This document shows, piece by piece, positions 3,604 through 6,090 of a DNA stretch of 6,090 nt. This stretch comes from Escherichia phage Lilleven. Under the pieces are notes generated by a model, which made no database searches, was not told the origin of the DNA, and saw only the letters and a list, made by a program, of their open reading frames with translations. The first letter of the stretch is position 1. The number at the start of each line of letters is the position of its first letter. The stretch lies in the sequence record MK629527.1, one strand, 5' to 3'. The position numbers were made by a program, and so were the translations under genes.

Positions 3604-3621
3604 ATGGGCCTTCGGGCCCAT
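3604..3621 (+). terminator. F-G intergenic hairpin (7-bp stem, UUCG tetraloop); weak terminator or mRNA-stability element
   Basis: ATGGGCC (3604-3610) pairs with GGCCCAT (3615-3621) around TTCG (3611-3614), followed by TTAAGGATTTTTC carrying the G SD. Same module as at J-F. Not followed by a clean T-run, so terminator function is uncertain. Confidence 0.45.
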
Positions 3622-3633
3622 TAAGGATTTTTC

Positions 3634-4197
3634 ATGTATCAAAATTTTGTTACTAAGCACGATACCGCTATTCAGACCTCCCGTTTCTCTGTTACTGACA
3701 GTATCACTCCTGTTGCGCCTACTGGTGATATCCCTATTATCAATACTGGTAATATTACTGCTGAGCGTGCTGTTGTTAGTCTTTATGCTAATTTGGCCGC
3801 TGACACCTCTTCTGATGGTTCTTTTATTGTTGCTATGAAGGTTGATACTTCTCCTGCTGATCCTAACTGTGTTATCTCTGCTGGTGTTAACCTTAGCTTT
3901 GCTGGTACCTCATACCCGATTGTTGGCATTGTTCGTTTTGAGTCTGCTTCTGAACAGCCCACTTCTATTGCTGGTAGTCAGATTGAGCGTTACCCTATTG
4001 AAATGTCTGTGGGCTCTGGTGGTGTCTGTTCTGCTCGTGATTGCGTTACTGTTGATATTCATCCTCGCACCTTTGGCAATAATGTTTTTGTTGGTGTGAT
4101 TTGCTCCAGTGCTAAATGGACCTCCGGCCTTGTGCTTGGTACTATCGCTACGACTCAGGTTATTCATGAGTATCAGGTTCTTCAGCCGCTCAAATAA
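3634..4197 (+). CDS. G: Major spike protein G
   Basis: 187-aa ORF at the position of G. Shares the conserved C-terminal region with phiX174 G (VRFES.S..PT.....YP, KDCVT.D..PRT.GNNV.VG, C-terminal QVI.E...LQPLK). SD AAGGA 3623-3627, 6 nt before ATG. Confidence 0.93.
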
Positions 4198-4332
4198 AAG
4201 GCCACCGCACCCCCGGTTATGTGTCTGCCCAGTGTAGGGTGGACCGAGCCGTACGGAGATACCCGATAAACTAGGAACGTGGAAGGCGTTAGCCGCCTTC
4301 CCTCCTGCTAAGCCCAAAAAGGAGCTTACAAT
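4198..4332 (+). other. G-H intergenic region: G+C-rich structured spacer, candidate complementary-strand (primase-dependent) origin
   Basis: 135-nt untranslated spacer, visibly more G+C-rich than the flanking genes. Contains CCACC/GGTGG complementarity (4202-4206 vs 4238-4242), the palindrome CCGTACGG (4249-4256), an 8-bp hairpin (4281-4301), and the H SD AAGGAG (4319-4324). Assigning it as the minus-strand origin rests on analogy with G4-type origins and an uncertain recollection of older alpha3/St-1 work. Confidence 0.35.
4281..4301 (+). terminator. Hairpin in G-H spacer (possible T_G-like leaky terminator or origin stem-loop)
   Basis: GGAAGGCG (4281-4288), loop TTAGC, CGCCTTCC (4294-4301); perfect 8-bp stem. 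No T-run follows, so function is ambiguous. Confidence 0.35.
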
Positions 4333-5331: not shown

Positions 5332-5358
5332 TTGTTGACATTCCTTGAACCTTTATGT

Positions 5359-5396
5359 GACTCTTGCTTCAATAAAACGAAGTAGGAGTCTTTTTT
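5359..5396 (+). terminator. Rho-independent terminator-like hairpin downstream of H; 3' arm contains the SD of the next ORF
   Basis: GACTCTTGCTTC (5359-5370) pairs with GAAGTAGGAGTC (5379-5390): 12 bp including two G.U pairs, loop AATAAAAC, followed by TTTTTT (5391-5396). The 3' arm contains AGGAG (5384-5388) and the ORF ATG follows at 5397. A perfect -35 hexamer TTGACA sits at 5335-5340. Confidence 0.6.
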
Positions 5397-5765
5397 ATGA
5401 AACCCGCTCACCGCCTTTATCATCCTGTGCTTGGTTCTTGGTTGTTTAAGTGTCCCGTTTATATTCGTTATGAGTCCCTTCATCATGGCCGCCTCATTAA
5501 GGTTCGTGCTGTTCGTGACCTTTCTCCGCGTCAGCAGTTGATTGCCAATCCTAAAAATTGCTTTGACGTTGTTATTGCTGAAATTGACGTTACTCACCTT
5601 TCTGTCACTTGGTATGATTTTCAAGCCGAAGAGTATGTCGAGTGTGATTCCGGCACTATGGAGCTTCTTCTTTCTCAGGTAAATTCTGGCGAGGTTATTC
5701 GCTCCTCCGAAGACCTGTTTGTTGATGTTGATGATATGGAATGGCTTTATGAAATTGTGGAGTAA
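5397..5765 (+). CDS. Hypothetical protein (122 aa) in the H-A intergenic region; no recognisable family
   Basis: ORF with SD AGGAG (5384-5388) 8 nt before ATG. Codon usage by eye matches the phage's structural genes (T-ending codons cgt, gtt, ctt, tct, gct, gat). Same strand as all known genes. Translation MKPAHRLYHPVLGSW...DVDDMEWLYEIVE has an acidic C-terminus and no motif I recognise. Confidence 0.5.
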   Translation: MKPAHRLYHPVLGSWLFKCPVYIRYESLHHGRLIKVRAVRDLSPRQQLIANPKNCFDVVIAEIDVTHLSVTWYDFQAEEYVECDSGTMELLLSQVNSGEVIRSSEDLFVDVDDMEWLYEIVE

Positions 5766-5768
5766 GTC

Positions 5769-5858
5769 ATGGAAACTGTTATTGGAAAATTTATTGCTCT
5801 GGCCGTTGTTGCTCTTATGCTGTATGGAATTTCTCGCTTGATTCGGAGGTTCCCGTGA
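5769..5858 (+). CDS. Hypothetical small membrane peptide (29 aa, single predicted transmembrane helix)
   Basis: Not in the ORF track. ATG 5769 is 3 nt after the stop of the preceding ORF and 6 nt after GGAG (5759-5762). METVIGKFIALAVVALMLYGISRLIRRFP: about 17 hydrophobic residues followed by a basic tail. Very short, so chance is not excluded. Confidence 0.3.
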   Translation: METVIGKFIALAVVALMLYGISRLIRRFP

Positions 5859-6031
5859 AATATTTTAGTTTTGTAGATGAACATTATGCTTACTGCCCTG
5901 ATACAAGGATTTTGCACATCACTCGCAGTCGTATTTCTGACCCTCGGTATGAGCGTTGCTTTCTTACTGACGAGGAGCATCTTGCACTTTTGGATTGGTT
6001 GAAAAATTATCCAACTTTCATTAATTCTTGA
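5855..6031 (+). CDS. Hypothetical protein (58 aa), GTG start overlapping the upstream stop (GTGA)
   Basis: Not in the ORF track. GTG 5855 overlaps the TGA of the 29-codon ORF, with GGAGG (5845-5849) 5 nt upstream. Translation (M)KYFSFVDEHYAYCPDTRILHITRSRISDPRYERCFLTDEEHLALLDWLKNYPTFINS; T-ending codon bias like the rest of the genome. Stop TGA 6029-6031 overlaps the -35 hexamer of the promoter before A. Confidence 0.35.
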   Translation: MKYFSFVDEHYAYCPDTRILHITRSRISDPRYERCFLTDEEHLALLDWLKNYPTFINS

Positions 6032-6057
6032 CAGACCTTTAAAATACCCTCTATATT
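6028..6057 (+). promoter_or_regulatory. Candidate sigma70 promoter for gene A (P_A)
   Basis: TTGACA (6028-6033), 18-nt spacer, TATATT (6052-6057): consensus -35 and near-consensus -10. Located about 35-60 nt upstream of the gene A ATG if the window is circular (position 6090 joins position 1). Confidence 0.55.
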
Positions 6058-6087
6058 GCCCTCATAGTTTCACTACGAGGGCTTTTT
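6058..6087 (+). terminator. Terminator-like hairpin plus T5 between the P_A -10 and the A start codon (T_H-like)
   Basis: GCCCTC (6058-6063) pairs with GAGGGC (6077-6082), plus inner TAG/CTA pairs (6065-6067 vs 6073-6075), then TTTTT (6083-6087). The 3' arm contains GAGGG, the likely SD for A. The 5' arm starts right after the -10, so P_A-initiated transcripts would probably lack it. Confidence 0.5.
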
Positions 6088-6090
6088 CGC

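Follow-up and report, generated by a model that had tools for sequence, protein, structure and literature searches.

Few genomes in biology are annotated as completely as those of the phiX174-like phages (Bullavirinae), of which one, alpha3, is still called a 10-gene phage. In phiX174 and G4, the spacer between genes H and A measures 63 nt and 58 nt, respectively, and is filled by a single control unit, in which the H stop codon is followed within 3-9 nt by TTGAC(A/T) and then by a -10 box, a hairpin with the gene A Shine-Dalgarno (SD) sequence in its 3' arm, a T-run, and the gene A ATG. Here, we describe the H-A spacer of Escherichia phage Lilleven, a 6090-nt Alphatrevirus that was isolated from wastewater in Denmark on E. 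coli MG1655 (MK629527; Olsen et al. 2020, PMC7552041), in which two copies of this unit, the first without a recognizable -10 box, surround ~630 nt of coding sequence. The window, by which we mean the whole 6,090-nt stretch of DNA that was analyzed, is a complete circular alpha3-like microvirus genome, and its closest relative in the phage collection is alpha3, with a spacer identity of 94%. The H-A spacer runs from 5332 to 6090 (759 nt; the last base of H is 5331, and gene A begins at base 1 of the circle), and 635 of its nucleotides are occupied by three open reading frames (ORFs), ORF1 to ORF3, which we refer to as the cassette. We propose, at a probability of roughly 45%, that the H-A region of alphatreviruses is a genus-confined accessory operon of three genes that is non-structural, directed at the host or at competitors, and expressed late by transcriptional read-through.

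With the microvirus genes K, E, A*, and B, the cassette has in common small proteins, extreme packing, and overlapping starts and stops. K and E are short hydrophobic membrane-type peptides, and ORF2 is similar to them by hydropathy. Unlike K, E, A*, and B, however, ORF1-3 use sequence of their own with no overprinting and occur in one genus only. The morons of tailed phages (lambdoid and others) offer a second likeness, as extra genes that lie at a fixed site, are absent in sister lineages, and are bounded by hairpins, but the cassette differs from them in having no consensus promoter, foreign composition, or homologue, in being fixed in the genus, and in sharing the ancestral downstream terminator. 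The three ORFs are arranged as follows.

5397-5765, plus strand: ORF1, ATG start, 122 aa; SD AGGAG at 5384-5388, 8 nt ahead of the start
5769-5858, plus strand: ORF2, ATG start, 29 aa; SD GGAG at 5759-5762, within the end of ORF1 and 6 nt ahead of the start
5855-6031, plus strand: ORF3, GTG start, 58 aa; SD GGAGG at 5845-5849, 5 nt ahead of the start

These coordinates agree with an earlier note on this DNA, made from the sequence alone, which had described a 759-nt spacer filled by same-strand ORFs of 122, 29, and 58 codons, each behind a properly spaced SD sequence (AGGAG, GGAG, and GGAGG), where phiX174 has only a short spacer. The tight packing that it reported is also borne out by the sequence: ORF1 and ORF2 are separated by a 3-nt gap (TAA-GTC-ATG), and the GTG start of ORF3 lies on the ORF2 stop in an overlapping GTGA. 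Its remark that codon usage resembles that of true phage genes holds as well, with T at 47-54% of third codon positions in ORF1-3 and at 48-56% in F, H, and D, and the canonical 10-gene set does leave ORF1-3 unexplained.

The evidence that the three ORFs are genes comes first from a comparison of Lilleven with 14 GenBank relatives and 7 metagenomic contigs. The earlier note had proposed such an alignment as the check on these ORFs, and in it the frames are kept, the substitutions are biased toward synonymous changes, and frameshifts are confined to St-1 and one old sequencing error. All three frames are open in Lilleven, in 12 of the 14 GenBank relatives, and in all 7 contigs. One exception is a 1-nt deletion that splits ORF1 in the 1985 and 1992 alpha3 records (~spacer position 193); since it is missing in the resequenced DQ085810.2, it is almost certainly a sequencing error, and it probably hid ORF1 from the original annotators. 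The other exception is St-1, with a 1-nt deletion in ORF1 (~spacer position 230) that may be a real frameshift of a laboratory strain. Expressed as the mean pairwise Nei-Gojobori ratio of nonsynonymous to synonymous substitution rates (dN/dS), selection on ORF1, ORF2, and ORF3 gives values of 0.18 (dS 0.71), 0.34, and 0.076, respectively, next to 0.05 for A, 0.12 for D, 0.14 for H, 0.21 for F, and 0.59 for G in the same genomes. Off-frame values are 1.0-2.4 overall and 1.0-1.9 for ORF1 and ORF3, with the sole exception of the ORF2 +1 off-frame (0.26). Variable columns concentrate at third codon positions in ORF1 (44/34/99 for positions one to three) and in ORF3 (12/7/30), and indels within the ORFs are all in frame. 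AlphaFold2, working from shallow alignments, predicted folds with a mean predicted local distance difference test score (pLDDT) of 89 and a predicted template modeling score (pTM) of 0.80 for ORF1, and with a pLDDT of 83 for ORF3. Judged by these substitution patterns, ORF1-3 are under protein-level purifying selection, and the support for coding status is strong for ORF1 and ORF3 and good for ORF2.

When 1.84 billion representative proteins were searched exhaustively with profiles, a single distant relative of ORF1, P0050 (E 1e-15), was returned. This allele is 36% identical to ORF1, is full-length, sits in the ORF1 slot, and has a stop that abuts the ORF2 ATG (contig L046, 820-1209, Logan SRR20337160), while the neighboring H, ORF2, ORF3, and A on the same contig are ordinary alphatrevirus sequences. 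A divergent allele that stays in frame is the strongest single result for coding, and a divergent ORF1 between typical flanks forms a mosaic that suggests recombination breakpoints at the borders of ORF1.

It therefore seems very improbable to us that the region is non-coding, that is, that the ORFs arose by chance in a T-rich genome and that the conservation comes from mRNA stability or from replication "reduction" sequences. Such a view can appeal to the existing annotation, as X60322, the DQ0798xx records, GQ149088, and a 2026 paper give only 10-11 genes; to the T-rich third positions, which do yield long spurious +1 ORFs; and to the unusually low nucleotide diversity over 5720-5840. It conflicts, however, with the asymmetry among codon positions, the off-frame dN/dS of at least 1 in the ORF1 and ORF3 regions, the in-frame indels, the preservation of the ORF in an allele of 36% identity, the confident AlphaFold2 folds, and the lack of any Rfam match.

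Other candidate frames in the spacer were considered and rejected. Two minus-strand ORFs (144 and 77 aa) are interrupted by stops in relatives. A hydrophobic, leucine-rich +1-frame ORF over ORF1/ORF2 (5719-5841) has a dN/dS above 1 across ORF1 and varies at its "second" codon positions. This +1 frame reaches up to 123 aa in WA13, WA45, and MG945254 (L002, 3533-3904), with one such ORF annotated in MG945254, and it stays open because third positions are T-rich. A longer, 136-aa version of ORF1 that begins at an upstream in-frame ATG was also set aside, as that ATG is not conserved.

As modeled, the ORF1 product is a two-domain soluble protein, and its halves differ in charge and in rate of change. 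Residues 1-56 carry a charge of +7.8 and are almost invariant (dN/dS 0.06), and residues 57-122 carry a charge of -17 and are variable (dN/dS 0.30). The most variable stretch of the whole spacer lies in this C half, where nucleotide diversity reaches 0.46 at 5662-5691, and the C-terminal end is a conserved acidic-aromatic motif, DDM(D/E)WLYEI. In the lineage represented by L018 and L019, 34 in-frame codons are inserted after Met-Lys-Pro to give an ORF1 of 154 aa. ORF1 and ORF3 weakly match the N-terminal sheet and first helix of OmpR/ToxR-type domains. An OmpR/PhoB winged-helix assignment for ORF3 and the ORF1 N half was rejected, as the recognition helix is lacking and there was no significant structural match. 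Paralogy between ORF1 and ORF3 was likewise rejected (hhalign probability, 0.9%).

ORF2 encodes a single hydrophobic helix (Kyte-Doolittle 1.2-2.15 per 19 aa) followed by a basic C-terminus, RLIRRFP, and looks from its sequence like a predicted one-helix inner-membrane peptide. The basic C-terminus, together with the positive-inside rule, leads to a predicted C-terminus-in orientation. Over the first 25 codons in 20 sequences, variable columns number 9/0/9 by codon position, with ~11 synonymous variants and with only hydrophobic-for-hydrophobic replacements. The length stays at 28-30 aa throughout, and the basic C-terminus is kept. Gene finders called ORF2 on all metagenomic contigs but L046, where the ORF exists at 1210-1302. 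The stretch from the ORF1 C-terminus through ORF2 (5720-5840) has the lowest nucleotide diversity of the spacer (0.06-0.12, synonymous sites included), and the first 348 codons of gene A likewise have a low dS (0.29). The low diversity at 5720-5840 may come from shared recombination history, or it may come from an overlapping constraint at the RNA or DNA level.

These properties bear on whether ORF2 makes a functional protein at all. If only ORF1 and ORF3 did so, ORF2 would be a coupling or leader ORF that brings ribosomes to the weak GTG start of ORF3. In keeping with this, ORF2 has very few codons, shows with a dN/dS of 0.34 the weakest signal of the three (a second frame is also below 1), and draws marginal PHROGs matches only, and in every junction, the rebuilt ones included, its stop overlaps or abuts the start of ORF3. 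We nevertheless consider a pure leader role improbable, and somewhat more so than the essential and moron explanations weighed below, since the ORF2 peptide itself is conserved, with no second-position changes in 25 codons against ~11 synonymous variants, and with a constant length.

ORF3 is predicted to be a small protein that folds as four strands and then one helix. In NC29/ID32-type genomes, the ORF2/ORF3 junction is rebuilt so that ORF3 starts with an ATG, which overlaps the ORF2 stop (ATGA) or comes 3 nt after it, and the genes are still adjacent. On one contig (L047, 298-534; ENA, coverage 2.2), a 26-nt deletion makes an in-frame fusion of codons 1-24 of ORF2 with ORF3 (codon 5 onward), and the fusion product is a 78-aa ORF3 that is predicted to be membrane-anchored. 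This fusion is a weak hint that ORF2 and ORF3 act together, coming as it does from a single low-coverage contig that could be an assembly artefact.

The cassette is confined to one group of phages. Homologues of ORF1 and ORF3 were found only on ~6-kb contigs ordered G-H-ORF1-ORF2-ORF3-A, only 3 clusters turned up among the 1.84 billion representative proteins, and tblastn against 50,697 phage records matched 26 alpha3-like records only. Loci in IMG/VR that were found via protein H mostly end at the H stop codon and added nothing. No match to the cassette DNA was found in 5,426 complete E. coli genomes, and a host origin is thus rejected. Within the genus, we found no presence/absence polymorphism: every alphatrevirus examined has the cassette, and phiX174 and G4 do not. 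A further candidate, that the cassette is a diverged copy of gene A or of another segment, was rejected for want of a significant blastn, tblastn, or tblastx match, and in no frame does the cassette resemble any sequence elsewhere in the genomes of alpha3, G4, or phiX174. Searches with Pfam, PHROGs, NCBIfam, and PADLOC profiles gave nothing significant, profile searches of PDB sequences gave chance matches only, and Rfam gave no relevant match.

Genus-wide presence could also mean that the alpha3-type cycle requires, or nearly requires, the cassette, for example as a helper of replication, DNA delivery, or assembly on K-12/B-type hosts. Purifying selection as strong as that on H, D, and F fits this explanation, as do the presence of the cassette in every alphatrevirus examined, its cost of 11% of the genome, and its position, with the DNA-pilot gene H on one side and the replication gene A on the other. 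On the other hand, ORF1 is frameshifted in St-1, a long-propagated laboratory phage, and phiX174 and G4 run the same cycle without the cassette. The hypervariable C half of ORF1 and the allele swap on L046 are better suited to an arms-race interface, and we regard an essential role as unlikely, well behind an accessory one.

Previous annotation of this region has been uneven. ORF1-3 are identical to QBZ71502.1, QBZ71503.1, and QBZ71504.1, which are Lilleven entries automatically labeled "hypothetical protein," and the description of Lilleven does not mention them (Olsen et al. 2020, PMC7552041). In the 1985 record of the alpha3 H gene (M25640), ribosome-binding sites are annotated exactly at the three SD sequences. 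The 1992 alpha3 genome, the Rokyta-series records (DQ0798xx), and the St-1 records list 10-11 genes and leave the spacer blank, while the automatic annotation of MG945254 calls ORFs in the spacer as hypothetical proteins. A 2026 paper on a new alphatrevirus lists ten genes. Our literature search found no paper that discusses ORF1-3, and a passing mention in Kodaira 1985/1992 or Rokyta 2006 is possible. With ORF1-3, the gene list of a classic group of model phages gains genuine but uncharacterized members.

The sequences on either side of the cassette suggest how it came to be where it is. The control unit of the spacer is present twice in Lilleven, as copy 1 before ORF1 (5332-5399) and copy 2 before gene A (6028-6090), with the following elements.

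5335-5340, plus strand: -35-like TTGACA of spacer copy 1, 3 nt past the H stop, without a consensus -10 at 16-18 nt
5359-5396, plus strand: hairpin T1 and a run of six T (T6), with a 12-bp stem, an 8-nt loop, and the ORF1 SD in the 3' arm; terminator-like
6028-6057, plus strand: promoter pA (TTGACA, 18 nt, TATATT), with the -35 overlapping the ORF3 stop
6058-6087, plus strand: hairpin T2 and a run of five T (T5), directly before the gene A ATG, with the gene A SD in the 3' arm; equivalent of phiX174 TH

Copy 1 runs in the order TAA, TTG, TTGACA, ~18 nt, a hairpin with AGGAG in its 3' arm, T6, and the ORF1 ATG. Its TTGAC is invariant in the relatives, and the placement is the same in phiX174 and G4. 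The T1 hairpin proper (5359-5390) has a folding energy of -17.9 kcal/mol (z -5.5), and its basal stem, GACTCTT/AGGAGTC, is invariant in the relatives. The U-tract, on the other hand, is not conserved: it reads TTTATT, TTTGCTT, or TTTATC in WA45, ID21, and NC28, and on L046 the sequence is TCTCTATC, with the T-run lost. In L018/L019 (1927-2110), the upper part of T1 is remodeled and longer, with no change to the basal stem, T5 run, or ATG. Since the T-run is degenerate but the basal stem is invariant, the stem may serve mainly to occlude the SD or to stabilize the mRNA.

Copy 2 contains all elements of a phiX174-type pA/TH unit, namely the promoter boxes, the SD-bearing hairpin, the T-run, and the ATG. 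pA matches the consensus at 11 of 12 positions, is the best promoter-like site in the genome, and is collinear with the pA region of phiX174 and G4. The T2 hairpin (6058-6082; -14.2 kcal/mol, z -4.8) is followed by T5 and CGC and then by the ATG, and it is kept in the relatives except NC35. In global alignments, the phiX174 spacer matched the 5' copy with a z of 4.9, the G4 spacer matched the 3' copy with a z of 4.7, and the two Lilleven copies matched each other with a z of 4.0. In the phiX174 record, the only one in which it is annotated, the pA start is placed at 3962, which by direct counting is the first loop base of the hairpin. Because the start lies in the loop, phiX174 pA transcripts would lack the 5' arm, whereas read-through transcripts would carry the full terminator hairpin, so that the gene A SD would be buried in it.

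Two relatives differ at this end of the spacer. In NC35, a 29-nt deletion (L007, 695-730; window 6035-6063) has removed the spacer and -10 box of pA together with the 5' arm of T2, and the promoter scan found no promoter-like site left in its H-A spacer. Since NC35 is a viable isolate without the pA -10 box, transcription of its essential gene A must come from upstream and cross the cassette. In phiK (L012, 522-734), the ORF3 stop is lost by a TGA to TGG change, so that the protein reaches 70 aa, and the pA -35 box becomes TTGGCA through this same substitution.

Comparable arrangements were seen elsewhere in the genome. The J-F (2278-2304) and F-G (3606-3633) regions hold near-identical GGCCTTCGGGCC hairpins with UUCG tetraloops, each followed by TTAAGGATT, which contains the SD, and by the ATG of F or G; they repeat the "hairpin plus SD plus ATG" unit known from the H-A spacer. 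The G-H intergenic region (4198-4332) is 135 nt long and GC-rich, with strong hairpins such as GGAAGGCGTTAGCCGCCTTCC at 4281-4301. We take this spacer to be the site of the primase-dependent complementary-strand origin in St-1, phiK, and alpha3.

The earlier note had likened the cassette to a moron-type insertion between two terminator-like hairpins. The two hairpins are indeed present, but the moron comparison fared poorly. As a classical moron, the cassette would be horizontally acquired foreign DNA, autonomous through a promoter and a terminator of its own. phiX174 and G4 do lack it at the same site, hairpins lie on both sides, and a perfect TTGACA upstream is followed after 18 nt by TG-n-GACTCT, a possible weak extended -10. 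The composition is native, however, with a GC content of 0.42-0.43 in the cassette and 0.44 in the genome and with an AT skew likewise indistinguishable from the rest of the genome, and third positions are T-rich as elsewhere. No donor or homologue appeared in any database searched, and the promoter scan found no sigma-70 consensus promoter upstream of ORF1 in Lilleven or NC35. The downstream hairpin is the ancestral TH/pA unit, and the cassette is fixed in every alphatrevirus examined. On balance, we find acquisition as a moron about as doubtful as an essential role.

Under the accessory-operon reading that we prefer, the control unit would have been duplicated or recombined, so that ORF1 starts where gene A would. 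A duplicated unit would place the cassette inside the late transcription unit rather than make it a classical moron. The cassette would then be expressed from the tail of late pD-J-F-G-H transcripts by read-through of a leaky T1, with transcripts ending at T2. Read-through of T1 is plausible because the terminators of phiX174 are incomplete, blocking 20-40% (TJ, TF, and TG) or 70% (TH) of transcription (Logel and Jaschke). T1 is also proposed to sequester the ORF1 SD and in this way to keep output low, and translational coupling would carry ribosomes from ORF1 to ORF2 and on to ORF3. ORF2 would reside in the inner membrane, C-terminus inward, and would probably partner ORF3, while in ORF1 the invariant basic half may make a constant contact and the fast-evolving acidic half may face a variable partner. 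The module as a whole would act on the host cell or on competing phages, with counter-defense or superinfection exclusion the most likely roles, and the cassette would raise fitness in natural hosts while being at least partly dispensable in the laboratory. That it is a non-structural interaction module is our judgment, made because there is no virion-related homology, a membrane peptide is coupled to a soluble protein, the acidic domain is hypervariable and swaps alleles, the cassette is fixed genus-wide at a cost of 11% of a size-limited genome, and the St-1 frameshift is tolerated. The acidic domain also raised the idea of anti-restriction, for which sites for EcoKI and EcoBI are uninformative, as they are almost absent across the clade and in phiX174.

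Several observations weigh against this reading. Selection like that on essential genes, together with universal presence, fits an essential role equally well, and the frameshift in St-1 could come from a sequencing error. The T-run of T1 is degenerate in several relatives, and the role of T1 may lie in mRNA stability or translation and not in termination. The similarity of the two control units comes from ~65-nt alignments with z values of 4-5 against mononucleotide shuffles. ORF2 taken alone is statistically weak, with a dS of 0.16 and a second frame in which dN/dS is also below 1. Homology and fold searches returned no match that gives ORF1-3 a function, and the case for the cassette is built on sequence comparison and predicted structures.

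A more specific scheme, in which alphatreviruses are 13-gene phages, can be put forward as a long shot, on a par with the essential and moron explanations. The operon would owe its birth to duplication of the control unit, and T1 would still be a switch like the one that acts on gene A in phiX174: read-through RNA would fold T1 and thereby either end there or have its ORF1 SD hidden, whereas RNA that starts in the loop would leave the SD free. The products would form a membrane-associated counter-defense or exclusion device of new fold, with its specificity set by the acidic domain of ORF1. It is possible but unsupported that the perfect -35 and the TG-n-GACTCT at 18 nt make up a weak extended -10 promoter whose start in the T1 loop would free the SD, mirroring pA.

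If the proposal of an accessory operon is right, one of the three genera of Bullavirinae would have three further genes that are selected like structural genes, and the gene list of the subfamily would be incomplete. The practical gain is modest until the function of the cassette is found. The cassette would offer a small, tractable system for giving functions to orphan genes and a model for how new genes settle in a size-limited genome through the duplication of a regulatory spacer. It would also provide a handle on the ecological difference between alpha3-like phages and phiX174 and G4.

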